DNA of 64,000 nt from Escherichia coli (GTDB lineage: Bacteria; Pseudomonadota; Gammaproteobacteria; Enterobacterales; Enterobacteriaceae), in NCBI RefSeq assembly GCF_011045215.1, contig NZ_CP049201.1; one strand, 5' to 3'. Each line of letters starts with the position of its first letter. The first letter of the stretch is position 1. Shown here in pieces: positions 878 through 43,586 of this stretch. The position numbers and the translations under genes were made by a program. A model generated the notes under the pieces. That model saw nothing but the letters and a program-made list of their open reading frames with translations. It had not been told where the DNA came from and made no database searches.

Positions 878-4424
<3,547 letters not shown>

Positions 4425-4535
4425 ATAGCGCAATATCTCATCGTTGGTGCAAAAATGTAACGCACTGTGCACTGTCATAGTGCGTTTTCATTTTCAATCT
4501 TCTTAACTTCCTGCTCTCTTTCTCGTTTTTCATTT

Positions 4536-4551
4536 CTGGCACACCGCTTGC
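4536..4551 (+). promoter_or_regulatory. sigma54 (-24/-12) promoter of glnK-amtB
   Basis: TGGCAC-N5-TTGCA match (tggcacaccgcttgca) about 55-70 nt upstream of the glnK start; glnK is a known NtrC/sigma54 target. Confidence 0.65.
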
Positions 4552-4604
4552 AATACCTTCTTCGTGTAGCAGAACCATTACCGAATTCTGACCGGAGGGG
4601 ATCT

Positions 4605-4943
4605 ATGAAGCTGGTGACCGTGATAATCAAACCATTCAAGCTGGAAGACGTTCGTGAAGCGTTATCTTCCATTGGTATTCAGGGCCTGACCGTCACCGAA
4701 GTGAAAGGTTTCGGGCGTCAGAAAGGGCATGCCGAGCTGTACCGGGGGGCGGAATACAGCGTCAACTTCCTGCCAAAAGTAAAAATTGATGTGGCGATTG
4801 CTGATGACCAACTCGATGAAGTGATCGATATCGTCAGTAAGGCGGCTTACACCGGAAAAATTGGCGACGGCAAAATCTTCGTCGCTGAATTGCAACGCGT
4901 CATTCGTATTCGTACCGGCGAAGCCGACGAAGCGGCGCTGTAA
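4605..4943 (+). CDS. glnK: PII nitrogen regulatory protein GlnK
   Basis: 112-aa protein MKLVTVIIKPFKLEDVREAL... with T-loop RGAEY; immediately upstream of amtB. Confidence 0.95.
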   Translation: MKLVTVIIKPFKLEDVREALSSIGIQGLTVTEVKGFGRQKGHAELYRGAEYSVNFLPKVKIDVAIADDQLDEVIDIVSKAAYTGKIGDGKIFVAELQRVIRIRTGEADEAAL

Positions 4944-4972
4944 TCTCTGGCACACAGCAACAGGAACGAAAA

Positions 4973-6259
4973 ATGAAGATAGCGACGATAAAAACTGGGC
5001 TTGCTTCACTGGCGATGCTGCCGGGACTGGTAATTGCTGCACCTGCGGTGGCCGATAAAGCCGACAATGCGTTTATGATGATTTGTACTGCACTGGTGCT
5101 GTTTATGACTATTCCGGGGATTGCCCTGTTTTACGGTGGGTTGATTCGCGGCAAAAACGTGCTGTCGATGCTGACGCAGGTGACGGTGACGTTTGCACTG
5201 GTCTGTATTCTCTGGGTGGTTTACGGTTACTCGCTGGCGTTTGGTGAGGGCAACAACTTCTTCGGCAACATTAACTGGCTGATGCTGAAAAACATCGAAC
5301 TGACGGCGGTGATGGGCAGCATTTATCAGTATATCCACGTGGCGTTTCAGGGATCGTTTGCCTGCATTACCGTCGGCTTGATAGTTGGGGCGCTGGCGGA
5401 ACGAATCCGCTTCTCAGCTGTGTTGATTTTCGTGGTGGTATGGCTGACGCTCTCTTACATTCCGATTGCGCATATGGTGTGGGGCGGTGGTTTGCTGGCT
5501 TCTCACGGTGCGCTGGATTTCGCGGGTGGCACCGTGGTGCACATTAACGCCGCAATCGCCGGTCTGGTGGGCGCGTATCTGATAGGAAAACGCGTGGGCT
5601 TCGGTAAAGAGGCGTTTAAACCGCACAACCTGCCGATGGTCTTCACCGGGACTGCCATTCTCTATATCGGTTGGTTTGGCTTTAACGCCGGGTCAGCGGG
5701 CACGGCGAATGAAATCGCGGCACTGGCATTTGTGAATACTGTGGTCGCAACGGCGGCGGCAATTCTTGGCTGGATCTTCGGTGAATGGGCGCTGCGTGGT
5801 AAGCCTTCACTGCTGGGGGCGTGTTCTGGCGCGATTGCCGGTCTGGTCGGCGTGACGCCAGCCTGTGGCTACATTGGTGTTGGCGGCGCGTTGATTATCG
5901 GCGTGGTAGCTGGTCTGGCGGGCTTGTGGGGCGTTACCATGCTCAAACGCTTGCTGCGGGTGGATGATCCCTGCGATGTCTTCGGTGTGCACGGCGTTTG
6001 TGGCATTGTCGGCTGTATCATGACCGGGATTTTTGCCGCCAGCTCGCTGGGCGGCGTGGGCTTCGCTGAAGGTGTGACGATGGGCCATCAGTTGCTGGTA
6101 CAGTTGGAAAGCATTGCCATTACGATCGTCTGGTCCGGTGTGGTGGCATTTATTGGCTACAAACTGGCGGATCTGACGGTTGGCCTGCGTGTGCCGGAAG
6201 AACAAGAGCGAGAAGGGCTGGACGTCAACAGTCACGGCGAGAATGCCTATAACGCGTAA
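4973..6259 (+). CDS. amtB: ammonium channel AmtB
   Basis: 428-aa polytopic membrane protein with signal peptide; conserved glnK-amtB operon arrangement. Confidence 0.95.
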   Translation: MKIATIKTGLASLAMLPGLVIAAPAVADKADNAFMMICTALVLFMTIPGIALFYGGLIRGKNVLSMLTQVTVTFALVCILWVVYGYSLAFGEGNNFFGNINWLMLKNIELTAVMGSIYQYIHVAFQGSFACITVGLIVGALAERIRFSAVLIFVVVWLTLSYIPIAHMVWGGGLLASHGALDFAGGTVVHINAAIAGLVGAYLIGKRVGFGKEAFKPHNLPMVFTGTAILYIGWFGFNAGSAGTANEIAALAFVNTVVATAAAILGWIFGEWALRGKPSLLGACSGAIAGLVGVTPACGYIGVGGALIIGVVAGLAGLWGVTMLKRLLRVDDPCDVFGVHGVCGIVGCIMTGIFAASSLGGVGFAEGVTMGHQLLVQLESIAITIVWSGVVAFIGYKLADLTVGLRVPEEQEREGLDVNSHGENAYNA

Positions 6260-8454: not shown

Positions 8455-8568
8455 GGGGGCTCTGTTGGTTCTCCCGCAACGCTACTCTGTTTACCAGGTC
8501 AGGTCCGGAAGGAAGCAGCCAAGGCAGATGACGCGTGTGCCGGGATGTAGCTGGCAGGGCCCCCACCC
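8455..8568 (+). ncRNA. ffs: 4.5S RNA (SRP RNA)
   Basis: Sequence reads GGGGGCTCTGTTGGTTCTCCCGCAACGC...GGAAGGAAGCAGCCAAGGCAGA...GGGCCCCCACCC, matching the 114-nt 4.5S RNA including the conserved domain IV loop; located between atl and ybaA. Confidence 0.93.
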
Positions 8569-21965: not shown

Positions 21966-22064
21966 GCCGGATGCGGCGTGACCGCCTTATCCGGCCTACG
22001 AAACCGCAAAAATTCAATATATTGCAGGAGCGGTGTAGGCCTGATAAGCGTAGCGCATCAGGCA
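21966..22064. repeat. REP (repetitive extragenic palindrome) pair downstream of mscK
   Basis: gccggatgcggcgtgaccgccttatccggcctac and gtaggcctgataagcgtagcgcatcaggc, typical E. coli REP consensus in inverted orientation. Confidence 0.8.
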
Positions 22065-24098: not shown

Positions 24099-26030
24099 AT
24101 GAGTTATCAGGTCTTAGCCCGAAAATGGCGCCCACAAACCTTTGCTGACGTCGTCGGCCAGGAACATGTGCTGACCGCACTGGCGAACGGCTTGTCGTTA
24201 GGGCGTATTCATCATGCTTATCTTTTTTCCGGCACCCGTGGCGTCGGAAAAACCTCTATCGCCCGACTGCTGGCGAAGGGGCTAAACTGCGAAACCGGCA
24301 TTACCGCGACGCCGTGCGGCGTGTGCGATAACTGTCGTGAAATCGAGCAGGGGCGCTTTGTCGATCTGATTGAAATCGACGCCGCCTCGCGCACCAAAGT
24401 TGAAGATACCCGCGACCTGCTGGATAACGTCCAGTACGCTCCGGCGCGTGGTCGTTTCAAAGTTTATCTCATCGACGAAGTGCATATGCTGTCGCGCCAC
24501 AGCTTTAACGCACTGTTAAAAACTCTTGAAGAGCCGCCGGAGCACGTTAAGTTTCTGCTGGCGACGACCGATCCACAGAAATTGCCGGTGACGATTTTGT
24601 CGCGCTGTTTGCAATTTCATCTCAAGGCGCTGGATGTCGAGCAAATTCGCCATCAGCTTGAGCACATCCTCAACGAAGAACATATCGCTCACGAGCCGCG
24701 GGCGCTGCAATTGCTGGCACGCGCCGCTGAAGGCAGCCTGCGAGATGCCTTAAGTCTGACCGACCAGGCGATTGCCAGCGGTGACGGCCAGGTTTCAACC
24801 CAGGCGGTCAGTGCGATGCTGGGTACGCTTGACGACGATCAGGCGCTGTCGCTGGTTGAAGCGATGGTCGAGGCCAACGGCGAGCGCGTAATGGCGCTGA
24901 TTAATGAAGCCGCTGCCCGTGGTATCGAGTGGGAAGCGTTGCTGGTGGAAATGCTCGGCCTGTTGCATCGTATTGCGATGGTACAACTTTCGCCTGCTGC
25001 ACTTGGCAACGACATGGCCGCCATCGAGCTGCGGATGCGTGAACTGGCGCGCACCATACCGCCGACGGATATTCAGCTTTACTATCAGACGCTGTTGATT
25101 GGTCGCAAAGAATTACCGTATGCGCCGGACCGCCGCATGGGCGTTGAGATGACGCTGCTGCGCACGCTGGCGTTCCATCCGCGTATGCCGCTGCCTGAGC
25201 CAGAAGTGCCACGCCAGTCCTTTGCACCCGTCGCGCCAACGGCAGTAATGACGCCAACCCAGGTGCCGCCGCAACCGCAATCAGCGCCGCAGCAGGCACC
25301 GACTGTACCGCTCCCGGAAACCACCAGCCAGGTGCTGGCGGCGCGCCAGCAGTTGCAGCGCGTGCAGGGAGCAACCAAAGCAAAAAAGAGTGAACCGGCA
25401 GCCGCTACCCGCGCGCGGCCGGTGAATAACGCTGCGCTGGAAAGACTGGCTTCGGTCACCGATCGCGTTCAGGCGCGTCCGGTGCCATCGGCGCTGGAAA
25501 AAGCGCCAGCTAAAAAAGAAGCGTATCGCTGGAAGGCTACCACTCCGGTGATGCAGCAAAAAGAAGTGGTCGCCACGCCGAAGGCGCTGAAAAAAGCGCT
25601 GGAACATGAAAAAACGCCGGAACTGGCGGCGAAGCTAGCGGCAGAAGCCATTGAGCGCGACCCGTGGGCGGCACAGGTGAGCCAACTTTCGCTACCAAAA
25701 CTGGTCGAACAGGTGGCGTTAAATGCCTGGAAAGAGGAGAGCGACAACGCAGTATGTCTGCATTTGCGCTCCTCTCAGCGGCATTTGAACAACCGAGGTG
25801 CACAGCAAAAACTGGCTGAAGCGTTGAGCACGTTAAAAGGTTCAACGGTTGAACTGACTATCGTTGAAGATGATAATCCCGCGGTGCGTACGCCGCTGGA
25901 ATGGCGTCAGGCGATATACGAAGAAAAACTTGCGCAGGCGCGCGAGTCCATTATTGCGGATAATAATATTCAGACCCTGCGTCGGTTCTTCGATGCGGAG
26001 CTGGATGAAGACAGTATCCGCCCCATTTGA
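24099..26030 (+). CDS. dnaX: DNA polymerase III subunits tau (full length) and gamma (by frameshift)
   Basis: 643-aa ORF, AAA+ clamp-loader Walker A GTRGVGKTS; the internal slippery site yields gamma. Confidence 0.97.
   Translation: MSYQVLARKWRPQTFADVVGQEHVLTALANGLSLGRIHHAYLFSGTRGVGKTSIARLLAKGLNCETGITATPCGVCDNCREIEQGRFVDLIEIDAASRTKVEDTRDLLDNVQYAPARGRFKVYLIDEVHMLSRHSFNALLKTLEEPPEHVKFLLATTDPQKLPVTILSRCLQFHLKALDVEQIRHQLEHILNEEHIAHEPRALQLLARAAEGSLRDALSLTDQAIASGDGQVSTQAVSAMLGTLDDDQALSLVEAMVEANGERVMALINEAAARGIEWEALLVEMLGLLHRIAMVQLSPAALGNDMAAIELRMRELARTIPPTDIQLYYQTLLIGRKELPYAPDRRMGVEMTLLRTLAFHPRMPLPEPEVPRQSFAPVAPTAVMTPTQVPPQPQSAPQQAPTVPLPETTSQVLAARQQLQRVQGATKAKKSEPAAATRARPVNNAALERLASVTDRVQARPVPSALEKAPAKKEAYRWKATTPVMQQKEVVATPKALKKALEHEKTPELAAKLAAEAIERDPWAAQVSQLSLPKLVEQVALNAWKEESDNAVCLHLRSSQRHLNNRGAQQKLAEALSTLKGSTVELTIVEDDNPAVRTPLEWRQAIYEEKLAQARESIIADNNIQTLRRFFDAELDEDSIRPI
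25382..25393 (+). promoter_or_regulatory. dnaX programmed -1 ribosomal frameshift site (A AAA AAG heptamer plus shifted-frame stop)
   Basis: AAAAAAG at 25382-25388 lies in the dnaX frame as A AAA AAG; the -1 frame reads AAA AAA GAG TGA; upstream SD-like AGGGAG and downstream GC stem-loop (ccggcagccgctacccgcgcgcggccgg). Confidence 0.9.
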
Positions 26031-33344: not shown

Positions 33345-33435
33345 TCGTAGGCCAGATAAGGCGTTCACGCCGCATCTGGCATTTGGCATCTCGATGCCTG
33401 ATGCGACGCTGGCGCGTCTTATCATGCCTACATAT
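33345..33435. repeat. REP element pair downstream of gsk
   Basis: cgtaggccagataaggcgttcacgccgcatctggca ... gcctgatgcgacgctggcgcgtcttatcatgcctac, REP consensus in inverted orientation. Confidence 0.8.
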
Positions 33436-39107: not shown

Positions 39108-39191
39108 ACACCGTCGCTTAAAGTGACGGCATAATAATAAAAAAATGAAATTCCTCTTTGACGGGCCAATAGCGATATTGGCCATTTTTTT
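39108..39191 (+). ncRNA. chiX: small regulatory RNA ChiX (MicM/SroB)
   Basis: Sequence ACACCGTCGCTTAAAGTGACGGCATAATAATAAAAAAATGAAATTCCTCTTTGACGGGCCAATAGCGATATTGGCCATTTTTTT: 5-prime hairpin, A-rich seed region, terminator hairpin plus U-run; located in the ybaK-ybaP intergenic region where ChiX is encoded. Confidence 0.85.
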
Positions 39192-39984: not shown

Positions 39985-40121
39985 ACGACCTCCCTTTGTG
40001 AAATATCATGCTAGCGCGCGGGGAGGGATGGCGCAAATGGAGTTGGGGACTTGTTTAATGTGTTTGTATGATTCAGTATGTTCTTGTATCGCTATTCACA
40101 GGGAAGCAACAGTTAAAAAGT

Positions 40122-40463
40122 ATGAAACAGGCAACAAGAAAACCGACGACACCCGGAGATATTCTTCTCTATGAATATCTGGAACCGCTCGATTTGAAAA
40201 TCAATGAGTTAGCAGGGTTGCTGCATGTTCATCGTAATAGCGTCAGTACACTGATCAATAACAATCGTAAACTCACCACTGAGATGGCATTCCGTCTGGC
40301 GAAAGTTTTTGATACCACAGTCGATTTTTGGCTAAACCTCCAGGCGGCAGTTGATCTTTGGGAAGTTGAAAACAACATGCGCACCCAGGAAGAATTGGGA
40401 CGGATTGAAACAGTGGCTGAATATTTGGCACGCCGTGAAGAGCGTGCAAAAAAGGTCGCGTAA
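40122..40463 (+). CDS. ybaQ: HigA-like XRE-family HTH DNA-binding protein YbaQ
   Basis: 113-aa product from the internal Met (MKQATRKPTTPGDILLYEYLEPLDLKINELAGLLHVHRNSVSTLINNNRKLT...); track ORF 40068-40463 is an extension. Confidence 0.85.
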   Translation: MKQATRKPTTPGDILLYEYLEPLDLKINELAGLLHVHRNSVSTLINNNRKLTTEMAFRLAKVFDTTVDFWLNLQAAVDLWEVENNMRTQEELGRIETVAEYLARREERAKKVA

Positions 40464-40484
40464 GGCCAAAACATCGCTTCATCT

Positions 40485-41030
40485 CGTAGGCCGGATAAGG
40501 CGTTCACGCCGCATCCGGCATCCGAGCACCATTGCCTGATGCGACGCTTACGCGTCTTATCAGGCCTACAAACCTGTGCCTGAACCGTAGGCCGGAGAAG
40601 GCGTTCACGCCGCATCCGGCATCCGAGCACCATTGCCTGATGCGACGCTTACGCGTCTTATCAGGCCTACAAACCTGTGCCTGAACCGTAGGCCGGAGAA
40701 GGCGTTCACGCCGCATCCGGCATCCGAGCACCATTGCCTGATGCGACGCTTACGCGTCTTATCAGGCCTACAAACCTGTGCCTGAACCGTAGGCCGGAGA
40801 AGGCGTTCACGCCGCATCCGGCATCCGAGCACCATTGCCTGATGCGACGCTTACGCGTCTTATCAGGCCTACAAACCTGTGCCTGAACCGTAGGCCGGAG
40901 AAGGCGTTCACGCCGCATCCGGCATCCGAGCACCATTGCCTGATGCGACGCTTACGCGTCTTATCAGGCCTACAAACCTGTGCCTGAACCGTAGGCCGGA
41001 GAAGGCGTTCACACCGCATCCGGCAGTCAT
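40485..41030. repeat. tandem array of REP-containing units (BIME-like), five full 101-bp copies plus a degenerate sixth
   Basis: Unit cgtaggccggagaaggcgttcacgccgcatccggcatccgagcaccattgcctgatgcgacgcttacgcgtcttatcaggcctacaaacctgtgcctgaac recurs starting at 40485, 40586, 40687, 40788, 40889 (period exactly 101 bp); generates the identical 76-aa track ORFs on the minus strand. Confidence 0.9.
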
Positions 41031-41081
41031 GCGTCGATGCCAAATGCGCCGCCCTAAAGCAGCGCATCCGCAATGACGTAC

Positions 41082-43586
41082 TTATTCCTTCGGTTTAAAC
41101 CGCAGCAACCGGTTGGCGTTACTCACTACGGTAATCGACGAGAGCGCCATTGCCGCTCCGGCAACCACCGGGTTAAGCAGTGTTCCAGTAAACGGCCACA
41201 AAATACCGGCGGCAACCGGAATACCGATGCTGTTGTAGATAAACGCGCCGAGCAGGTTCTGCTTCATGTTGCGCAGCGTTGCGCGGGAAATAGCGAGCGC
41301 ATCCGCAACGCCCATCAGGCTATGGCGCATCAGGGTAATCGCCGCGGTTTCAATAGCAACATCACTGCCGCCACCCATCGCAATGCCGACATCCGCCTGA
41401 GCCAGCGCTGGCGCGTCGTTAATGCCGTCGCCCACCATTGCCACCTGACGTCCTTCACTTTGCAGACGTTTGATCGCTTCGGCTTTACCGTCTGGCAGCA
41501 CCCCGGCGATCACCTCATCAATCCCTGCTTCTTTGGCGATCGCATTGGCGGTGGTTGGGTTATCCCCGGTCAACATCACCAGACGATATCCCGCTTTATG
41601 CAGGCGTTGCAGCGCCGCCACGCTATCACTACGCAACGGATCGCGTACAGCCAGCAGGGCTACCGCTTTCCCGTCAACCGCCAGCAGCACTGGCGTTGCC
41701 CCTTGCGATGCCTGAGCTGAAATATCTGCTTCAATCGCTTTAGTATCAACTTGCTGGTCATTTAACAGCGCCTGATTGCCCAGCAATAACGCATGACCTT
41801 CAGCTTCACCGCTCACGCCCAGCCCGCGCAATGTGCGGAAACCGTTGACCTGCGGCAGCTGCATATCGCTTGCTTTATCGAGGATCGCCCGTGCCAGCGG
41901 ATGGCTGGAACCTTGTTCCAGTGCCGCCGCCAGACGCAGCGCCTGCGCTTCGTCAAAATCAGCAAATGTTTTCACTGCGACAACCTGCGGCTTCCCTTCG
42001 GTCAGCGTCCCGGTTTTATCGAACACGACGGTATCGAGTGTACTGGCGCGTTGCAGCGCGTCGGCGTCCCGCACCAGCACGCCAAACTCAGCCGCCCGCC
42101 CGACGCCGGAAATAATCGACATCGGCGTCGCCAGCCCCAGCGCACACGGACAGGCAATAATCAGCACCGTGGTGGCAATCACCAGGGTATAGACAATCTG
42201 CGGTGCCGGACCAAAGAAATACCAGATTGCCGCACTGACAAGCGCAATCACCACTACTACCGGCACAAATACGGCTGAGATTTTATCCGCCAGCTGACCG
42301 ATTTCTGGCTTGCTGCTCTGGGCCTGGCGCACCATACGAATAATCCTTGATAACGTGGTATGGCTGCCAACCGCACTGGCGCGAAACAGCACGCTACCGT
42401 CCTGCACCACTGTCCCGGCATGGACGCTATCGCCTTCGCCTTTTTGCTGCGGGATAGGTTCGCCCGTCAGCATCGCTTCATCCAGCCATGCTTCGCCTTG
42501 GGTAATCTCGCCATCTACCGGCACGCGATCGCCGGTCGTCAGGCGCAGCAACATACCTGGCTGCACTTCCGCCAGCGGCACGCTTTTTTCACCTTCGTCA
42601 GTAACCAGGCGCGCCGTCGGTGGGGTTAAATCGAGTAATTTCTCCAGCGCCTTAGAAGAACGCTGACGTGCGCGCGCTTCCAGCATATGACCGAGATTAA
42701 TCAGACCGATAATCATCGCACTGGCTTCATAGTAAAGATGCCGCGCTTCCATCGGGAACCACTGCGGCCACAGGTTGACGCTCATCGAATAGAGCCACGC
42801 CACACCCGTACCCAGCGCCACCAGCGTATCCATCGTCGCCGCACCGTTCAGCAGGCTTTTCCATGCACTGCGGTAAAAATGGCCGCCGGCGAAAACCATC
42901 ACTGCCAGGGTTATCAGGCCGATAACCAACCACAGGCTGCGGTTGTCAGCGGTGACCATCATGTTATCGCCGATCATCCCCCAGACCATCACCGGGATAC
43001 CCACCGCCAGTGCGACAATCGCCTGCCAGCGGAAGCGCTTCATCGTAGCGACGGCGGTTTCCTGCTGGCGCTCGCGGCGTTTAGCGTCATCTTCAATCGC
43101 TTCCGCGCCGTAGCCCGCTTTTTCCACCGCCTGCACTAAATCTTGTGGGGAGGCACTGCCCATCACCAGCGCAGTACGCTCCGCCAGGTTTACCCGTGCC
43201 TGAGTGACGCCCGGTACGCTTTGCAGCGCATTTTGTACGCGGGTGACACAGCTGGCGCAGCTCATGCCGCTCAGCAGCAACTGCTGGCTGTCATCGTCAT
43301 CGGCAGTCGCTGCCGGAAGCGCCTCAGAAACCGCTGTCAGTGCTTCCGACGGGATTGATGACTCCGCCAGCGGTTTAGCCTTTGGGTGGCTTACAGATGC
43401 GTCATAACCCGCTTGTTTGATGGTTTCGATCAGCTGTTCTGCACTGGCAGTCCCGGTAACGTGCGCTTCAGTGATAGACACATCCGCTTGTTCCACATCC
43501 GGGCGCTGTTCGAGACTTTCTTTCACGCGTTTAACGCAGTGACCGCAGGACAGGCCGTCCAGGGTCAGGTCGATAGTTTGTGACAT
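41082..43586 (-). CDS. copA: Cu(I)-translocating P1B-type ATPase CopA
   Basis: 834-aa ORF with two N-terminal CxxC metal-binding domains (GLSCGHC, GMSCASC), CPC motif in the TM region, DKTGTLT phosphorylation site. Confidence 0.97.
43375..43386 (-). promoter_or_regulatory. copA programmed -1 frameshift site producing the 70-aa chaperone CopA(Z)
   Basis: Minus-strand heptamer C CCA AAG at codons 67-69 (43380-43386); the -1 frame reads CCC AAA GGC TAA, terminating after the first metal-binding domain at 70 aa. Confidence 0.75.

Follow-up and report, generated by a model that had tools for sequence, protein, structure and literature searches.

BIME-2 elements consist of y and z2 palindromes separated by a short linker, exist as multiple tandem copies and vary in copy number between strains, and TnpA-REP has been found to cut at CC^T and to join BIME units in vitro (PMC3333891). 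Gyrase cleavage sites are over-represented in BIME-2, favour Y REPs and increase after rifampicin, and cleavage has been recorded in just 'a subset' of BIME-2 elements (PMC6379681). BIME-2 sites also tend to lie at the borders of supercoiling regions. Experiments on REP325 have shown that it attenuates transcription in a partly Rho-dependent manner, stabilises mRNA and gives rise to a ladder of RNAs ending in hairpins, and its deletion shifts the expression of neighbouring genes 3- to 10-fold (bioRxiv 10.64898/2026.03.23.713779). Convergent gene pairs with a REP between them have higher expression genome-wide, REPs have no general effect on mRNA half-life, and about 40% of REPs between convergent genes lie within reported bidirectional terminators (bioRxiv 10.64898/2026.03.23.713779). 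Our literature search returned nothing specific on a REP array at ybaQ/copA. No entry for the ybaQ-copA array was present in the available parts of the Harris 2026 and RepRanger files, and the available part of the Topo-seq paper's supplementary text had no entry for ybaQ or copA.

In this study, we analysed a stretch of 64,000 nucleotides of Escherichia coli DNA (RefSeq assembly GCF_011045215.1, contig NZ_CP049201.1), referred to below as the window, and focused on the tandem array between ybaQ and copA. The array is a BIME-2 cluster common to the 3' ends of both genes. The element is of a kind already known and the locus is occupied in K-12 too; the allele of the window is an expanded and recently homogenised one. 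With a probability of about 0.72, we consider that a BIME-2 arose in place in the shared ybaQ/copA 3' region, where it would provide hairpins for RNA 3' ends, a leaky block to transcription with Rho acting beyond it, and a gyrase site. The locus bears on the debate over the function of REP arrays such as REP325, and it offers a natural series (no REP, one palindrome, and one to nine units) on similar flanks beside the well-studied, inducible copA, with which the number of REP hairpins could be correlated with 3'-end formation, clean-up by Rho and the recruitment of gyrase.

Structure and classification of the array

A single 101-bp array was identified by TRF at 40485-41025 (5.4 copies, 99% matches, 0% indels, score 1068), and no other tandem array scored 80 or more in the 64-kb window. 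Direct comparison of the units placed their starts at 40485, 40586, 40687, 40788 and 40889. Units 2-5 were 100% identical and unit 1 differed from them at one base (T vs G at position 12), so that the exact period and the near identity of the units, both proposed in an earlier sequence-only reading, hold. The same reading had described a degenerate sixth copy and an end at 41030. This copy is really a truncated unit, comprising the first 36 nt (40990-41025) with one mismatch (35/36 bases), and the repeat stops at 41025, where unique flank follows. With a Y REP that is almost intact as its sixth copy, the array begins and finishes with the same palindrome.

Each unit has the order Y REP, 12-nt linker, Z2 REP and 16-nt linker, that is, a 36-nt palindrome CGTAGGCCGGAGAAGGCGTTCACGCCGCATCCGGCA, the linker TCCGAGCACCAT, a 37-nt palindrome TGCCTGATGCGACGCTTACGCGTCTTATCAGGCCTAC and the linker AAACCTGTGCCTGAAC. 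Five full 101-bp units plus the terminal Y REP give six Y and five Z2, or 11 palindromes, as established by TRF, unit comparison and palindrome typing. The REP core pattern matched 15 times in the window, with 0.54 matches expected, and 11 of the 15 were inside the array. When the palindromes were typed against the three E. coli consensus sequences quoted in PMC11208160, six were Y (32-34/35) and five were Z2 (34/37, score 32 vs 19 for Z1). GTAGGCC and GGCCTAC alternate 11 times across 40486-40991, so orientation alternates strictly, and the inverted palindrome pairs on which a REP/BIME identity had been proposed are borne out.

All Y REPs lie on the + strand. The first (40485-40520) has GTAG at the 5' end of that strand, forms an inverted repeat, carries the canonical T at position 12 and matches the Y consensus at 34/35 bases, while those at 40586-40621, 40687-40722, 40788-40823 and 40889-40924 are variants with 12G and 21C, and the terminal one (40990-41025) has 12G, 21C and 24A and matches at 32/35. 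The Z2 REPs lie on the - strand. The first (40533-40569) reads ...GGCCTAC on the + strand, matches Z2 at 34/37 and forms an inverted repeat, and the remaining four, at 40634-40670, 40735-40771, 40836-40872 and 40937-40973, were assigned by typing together with their inverted repeats. The head-to-head linker TCCGAGCACCAT occupies 40521-40532, which is the 'S' position of BIME-2, and recurs every 101 bp at 40622, 40723, 40824 and 40925. The tail-to-tail linker AAACCTGTGCCTGAAC occupies 40570-40585 and recurs with the same period; RNA 3' ends from K-12 Term-seq map within it.

The array is extragenic, lying between the stop of ybaQ (40463) and that of copA (41082), and the two genes are convergent. 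ybaQ (40122-40463, + strand) encodes an HTH/HigA-family antitoxin-like regulator (ORF, Pfam HTH_3 and RefSeq annotation of homologues) and lies upstream of the array for the + strand transcripts that run into it. copA (41082-43586, - strand) encodes the Cu(I)-exporting P-type ATPase, and its 3' end faces the array. This gene context, which had been proposed beforehand, was confirmed by the ORFs and by the RefSeq annotation of homologous loci; by homology, the window corresponds to part of the K-12 map near 0.5 Mb. The units combine Y with Z2, alternate in orientation, have a short 12-nt linker, occur in strain-variable tandem copies and lie at an extragenic site, as BIME-2 elements do. Binding of IHF had also been suggested for the array. 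It belongs to BIME-1 with its long L linker, and no match to the IHF consensus WATCAANNNNTTR was obtained at up to one mismatch within 40464-41081; with Z2 in place of Z1 as the partner palindrome and with tandem repetition, the BIME-1/IHF-site reading was rejected.

The repeat also generates open reading frames, namely four identical 50-aa ORFs on the + strand, three identical 76-aa ORFs on the - strand, and edge variants. No Pfam match was obtained for any of them and no gene is annotated by RefSeq in the equivalent array of PapM-32-1. Their periodicity just follows the DNA repeat, and a protein-coding reading was rejected; four near-identical ORFs had already been taken as phantoms. Correct annotation accounts for a 541-bp perfect-repeat block and about ten spurious ORFs.

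Copy number and unit turnover among E. coli genomes

Copy number had been expected to vary between strains, and comparison of genomes gave anything from no full unit to nine, each step being exactly 101 bp. Among the representative loci, the ybaQ-copA spacers differ by exact multiples of 101 bp once one Y is present. Spacers of 57 bp (no REP, ZH063), 113 bp (one Y, STEC2017-197), 214 bp (one full unit, OkiPb01690, with the same locus span in O157:H7 genomes), 315 bp (two units, MG1655), 416 bp (three units, C43(DE3) and the BL21 lineage), 517 bp (four units, 22AR0118), 618 bp (five units, the window and PapM-32-1) and 921 bp (eight units, ATCC 8739) were found. The number of palindromes at the locus ranges from 0 to about 19 in other strains and is 11 in the window.

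A 40-nt probe across the head-to-head linker was present in 2,266 of 5,426 complete E. coli genomes, at 3,777 places in total. Positive genomes had one to nine matches (median 2), with exactly two in K-12 and exactly one in O157:H7. Because these two numbers equal the units at the locus, the linker is confined to ybaQ-copA in E. coli and the probe count represents full units, for which it is a lower bound. A 22-nt linker probe gave zero matches when one genome per species was searched, and the E. coli representative genome itself evidently lacks the linker. Allele shares could be given roughly, from two evenly spaced samples of 60 rows, as BLAST pieces re-use the same repeat and coverage statistics gave no exact counts; about 33% had no REP, about 23% a single Y, about 22% one unit, about 17% two and about 3% three or more. 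Five units lie in the upper tail, with perhaps 1% of genomes, yet the complete genomes with a five-unit array number at least seven (PapM-32-1, 2824, H2, FDAARGOS_1277, W21, MB06233 and BKQ37E).

Further polymorphisms were observed around ybaQ. In 28/28 sampled toxin-bearing genomes, where an intact gene for a RelE/ParE-family toxin immediately precedes ybaQ, the spacer was the REP-less 57-bp allele. The toxin polymorphism was observed at 233-535 of the ZH063 locus sequence and at 39985-40121 of the window. In REP-bearing alleles, including those of the window and K-12, about 70 bp of unrelated DNA replaces the toxin gene, and ybaQ is an orphan HigA-like antitoxin gene. The toxin and REP polymorphisms were completely linked among ybaQ-keeping genomes in the two samples. 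In a minority of genomes ybaQ is missing, and the interval between ybaP and copA contains a different segment, which is GC-rich and about 430 bp long (1501-1928 of the Z0117EC0032 locus; the 846-847-bp class), and in a small class with a 590-bp span just the last bases of ybaQ are kept, with the 57-bp spacer.

Unit turnover was followed by scoring the units against a reference unit and recording where they differ. Edge units were conserved within lineages and interior units were gained or lost. C43(DE3) corresponds to MG1655 plus one unit, H2 to 22AR0118 plus one '12G,26T' unit, and ATCC 8739 to 22AR0118 plus four '12G,26T' units, among them a 202-bp block of two units that was duplicated. PapM-32-1 has the same length and the same two edges as the window, whereas its four interior units are all different and those of the window are identical (12G,21C). 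Altogether, five-unit arrays have three compositions, that of the window and PapM-32-1, that of strain 2824, and that of H2 and BKQ37E. Conserved edges, varied interiors and these three compositions imply that expansion, contraction and homogenisation recur in place. Unequal crossing-over or slippage, or a REP-associated transposase, are the candidate processes; CC^T motifs are present in the array at GGCC^TAC and in the linker.

Amplified interior units have G rather than T at position 12 (40597, 40698, 40799, 40900 and 41001 in the window), and 12G occurs in the amplified interior units of both the window lineage and the ATCC 8739 lineage. The substitution disrupts the T12-A29 pair that adjoins the internal bubble in the Y stem, and the fold of the unit becomes 1-4 kcal/mol less stable. 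By widening this bubble, 12G might mark a substrate preferred by RAYT.

An insertion was also observed at the locus. In E. coli WEC (NZ_CP114592.1), IS621, an IS110-family bridge-RNA recombinase element, is inserted in a Z2 REP of the ybaQ-copA BIME at ...ATCAGGCCT^ (4480-5991 of the locus sequence), and the linker 3' of the insertion is unusual (about 38 nt vs 19). The array of the window contains the natural IS621 target ATCAGGCCTAC five times without mismatch, at 40559 (in the first Z2 REP), 40660, 40761, 40862 and 40963, which makes the array a predictable landing pad for the bridge-RNA recombinase.

For the main reading, a BIME-2 arisen in place, the comparison shows an origin within E. 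coli in which a single 101-bp Y-Z2 unit was duplicated in tandem and deleted again and again, as seen from the 101-bp allelic series, the linker restricted to this locus, and the conserved edges with duplicating interiors. The same polymorphism can also be read as that of a neutral or selfish repeat, in which a REPIN amplified by RAYT/TnpA-REP, slippage or unequal crossing-over is tolerated and drifts in copy number without phenotype. We regard this as possible yet doubtful. It is consistent with the presence/absence and 0-9-unit polymorphism, with arrival at the same length by different routes, with the tolerated IS621 insertion, and with the CC^T sites at which TnpA-REP could act, given that BIME units are joined by it in vitro (PMC3333891). 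The unit is moreover REPIN-like, as the minimum-energy fold of its - strand is a single Y:Z2 hairpin (-48 to -52 kcal/mol) and its ends are GTAG. However, neutrality is compatible with the RNA effects seen in K-12 and does not exclude them, and deletion of REP325 does alter the expression of its neighbours (bioRxiv 10.64898/2026.03.23.713779). As about one third of the sampled genomes have no REP here and the IS621 insertion is tolerated, any function of the array is dispensable.

RNA 3' ends and DNA topology in the convergent spacer

Both strands of the array fold far better than shuffled sequences (-285 and -327 kcal/mol, z about -8), and a unit can adopt two folds, with a local hairpin at each REP or with Y and Z2 paired in a single long hairpin. 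A terminator scan of 40464-41081 on both strands found no GC-rich stem followed by a U run, from which it follows that these REPs are not classical intrinsic terminators. An intrinsic (Rho-independent) terminator reading was rejected, there being no terminator-like site in the spacer on either strand.

The published K-12 Term-seq list (Adams et al. 2021, supplementary file 1) contains RNA 3' ends on the + strand at 508,673 and 508,771. In K-12 unit coordinates the former falls 8 nt beyond the Z2 hairpin of unit 1 and the latter 5 nt beyond that of unit 2, and by homology they would correspond to 40577 and 40675 (+ strand) in the window, within the tail-to-tail linkers after the first and second Z2 REPs; these Term-seq data describe the 2-unit K-12 allele and do not tell genuinely terminated transcripts from those trimmed by exonucleases. 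The peak of a Rho termination region lies at 509,429 (+ strand), antisense to copA, with a Rho score of 8.9 and p 1.8e-12; without bicyclomycin, 77 reads were counted upstream and 9 downstream, as against 147 upstream and 153 downstream in its presence (Adams et al. 2021). The 77 reads in the upstream 800-nt window also indicate that ybaQ-sense transcription is low in K-12 (Adams et al. 2021), and the Rho stop lies a few hundred bases into copA on the antisense side. Taken together, the 3' ends and the Rho region indicate that low-level ybaQ-sense transcription partly ends at the REP hairpins and that the rest is stopped by Rho. The attenuator role suggested earlier fits these data, with RNA 3' ends inside the array and a Rho-dependent region just beyond it. 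The + strand of the unit has 34 C vs 27 G, with the C excess in both linkers, a bias that may favour Rho loading on ybaQ-sense RNA.

On the copA strand, no 3' ends are listed at 508,000-509,099 in the K-12 Term-seq data set (Adams et al. 2021). A non-REP hairpin is predicted on this strand at 41032-41078 (-27.7 kcal/mol, z -5.1), with its outer stem starting 4 nt past the copA stop, and the REP-less allele with the 57-bp spacer retains the hairpin core. This hairpin is a candidate for the copA 3' end structure. In REP-less alleles, an A/U-rich tail follows the hairpin core, and this tail was lost from REP-bearing alleles.

The best reading of the array is a leaky, structured 3'-UTR element, a 3'-end anchor or attenuator. 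Transcripts of either gene would form successive stable REP hairpins, by which RNA 3' ends immediately beyond the Z2 stems would be marked or shielded and read-through reduced. As a barrier, the hairpins would be leaky, and residual ybaQ-sense transcription would continue antisense into copA, where Rho would stop it. On the DNA itself, the six Y REPs are probably a preferred gyrase site between the converging transcription units, as expected from their class, and extra units would add redundancy and no new activity.

Gyrase targeting of the array is likely by analogy with other BIME-2 elements, and it leads to a different emphasis, in which the array is a DNA-level device, a strong transcription-independent gyrase site or supercoil barrier relieving positive supercoils, with incidental RNA effects. 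We consider this unlikely. Six Y REPs do lie between convergent genes, gyrase cleavage is enriched in BIME-2, prefers Y REPs and rises after rifampicin (PMC6379681), and such sites tend to sit at supercoiling borders. However, just a subset of BIME-2 elements is cleaved (PMC6379681), RNA 3' ends do map inside the array in K-12, and the element is dispensable in many lineages.

Remaining alternatives and comparison with known systems

Over 28000-52000 of the window, the best complete E. coli genome was just 98.8% identical over 24 kb, and the ybaQ-copA flanks were 100% identical to PapM-32-1; by its sequence, this region looks mosaic. The distance from the best complete RefSeq genome, together with the identity of units 2-5 over a perfect repeat of more than 404 bp, beyond the span of short reads, raises the question of an assembly artefact, the true array in the source strain being shorter or longer. 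We regard such an error as improbable, for at least seven complete genomes likewise have five full units, ATCC 8739 has eight, the probe is found up to nine times per genome, and the array edges match PapM-32-1 exactly. The region should be flagged all the same, because short-read assemblies will get the array wrong.

A BIME-2 arisen in place and acting on RNA 3' ends might be extended into a further proposal, namely that unit number is a heritable stepwise dial of antisense-copA read-through, copA mRNA 3' stability and gyrase recruitment, and that the polymorphism is non-neutral. We hold this to be speculative and very improbable. If it were true, lineages would differ in copper-efflux capacity without any change of promoter or protein.

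A search with Rfam gave five naRNA4 (RF02564) matches on the + strand, at 40489-40566, 40590-40667, 40691-40768, 40792-40869 and 40893-40970, each comprising Y, linker and Z2 and scoring 81-87.1 bits against a gathering score of 59.5. Matches on the - strand were weaker (one of 64.3 bits and four of 57.9). The model in effect describes any Y-Z2 pair, since a lone pair passes too. This lone Y-Z2 pair was observed at 33350-33428 of the window (71.4 bits), and a lone Y-type REP occurs at about 21966-21979. The other above-threshold Rfam matches were a dnaX frameshift element (25363-25427), SRP RNA (8463-8559) and sroB (ChiX sRNA; 39108-39191, next to ybaP). By analogy with the proposal for REP325 (PMC4550694), the five + strand matches and the shared Y-linker-Z2 design could be taken to mean that the units are processed to HU-binding RNAs of about 77 nt that bridge cruciform DNA and condense the chromosome, a scenario that we judge highly improbable, because RF02564 fits even the lone pair, one third of the sampled strains lack the array, ybaQ-sense transcription is low in K-12, and the laboratories behind the original proposal found in 2026 that nucleoid volume did not change measurably on deletion or over-expression of REP325 or naRNA4 and that there was no stable HU-DNA-RNA ternary complex (bioRxiv 10.64898/2026.03.23.713779).

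As a leaky 3'-end element of the BIME-2 class, the array can be compared with five known systems. With BIME-1 (RIP/RIB; Y and Z1 with an IHF-binding L linker) it shares the Y REP and the extragenic position, but it has a Z2 partner, a 12-nt linker without the IHF consensus, and tandem repetition, whereas BIME-1 elements are single copies (PMC3333891). With bidirectional intrinsic terminators it shares a palindromic structure between two converging 3' ends; in contrast to them, its stems are not flanked by U or A tracts, the terminator scan gave no match, and read-through is stopped by Rho downstream. An inverted REP pair, GTAG ends, folding into a long hairpin and CC^T motifs are features in common with the REPIN-RAYT system, in which doublets are mobilised by TnpA-REP, but here the doublet is tandemly amplified at one site instead of dispersed, and the linker occurs nowhere else in E. 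coli.

The K-12 array REP325, in the yjdM-yjdN spacer, has a period of 100 (5.8 copies, 96% matches) and the same Y-linker-Z2 unit, and both arrays pass RF02564. The Y-linker-Z2 core is identical at 71-72 of 81 bases between REP325 and the unit of the window, while both linkers differ; from this similar core, the similar size and the other linkers, we conclude that the array of the window is a BIME-2 paralogous to REP325, the E. coli REP array studied in most depth, and of the same design. REP325 has 12 palindromes vs 11 here, occupies another locus, and lies inside an operon rather than in a convergent-gene spacer, and its units are 96% alike vs 99-100% in the window. Within the BIME-2 family as classified by Gilson and Bachellier (Ton-Hoang 2012, PMC3333891), to which the alternating Y and Z2, the short linker, the tandem extragenic arrangement and the strain-variable copies at one locus all belong, the array shows no difference in kind; it is set apart by having 11 palindromes where the K-12 allele has 5, and by interior units that are mutually identical.
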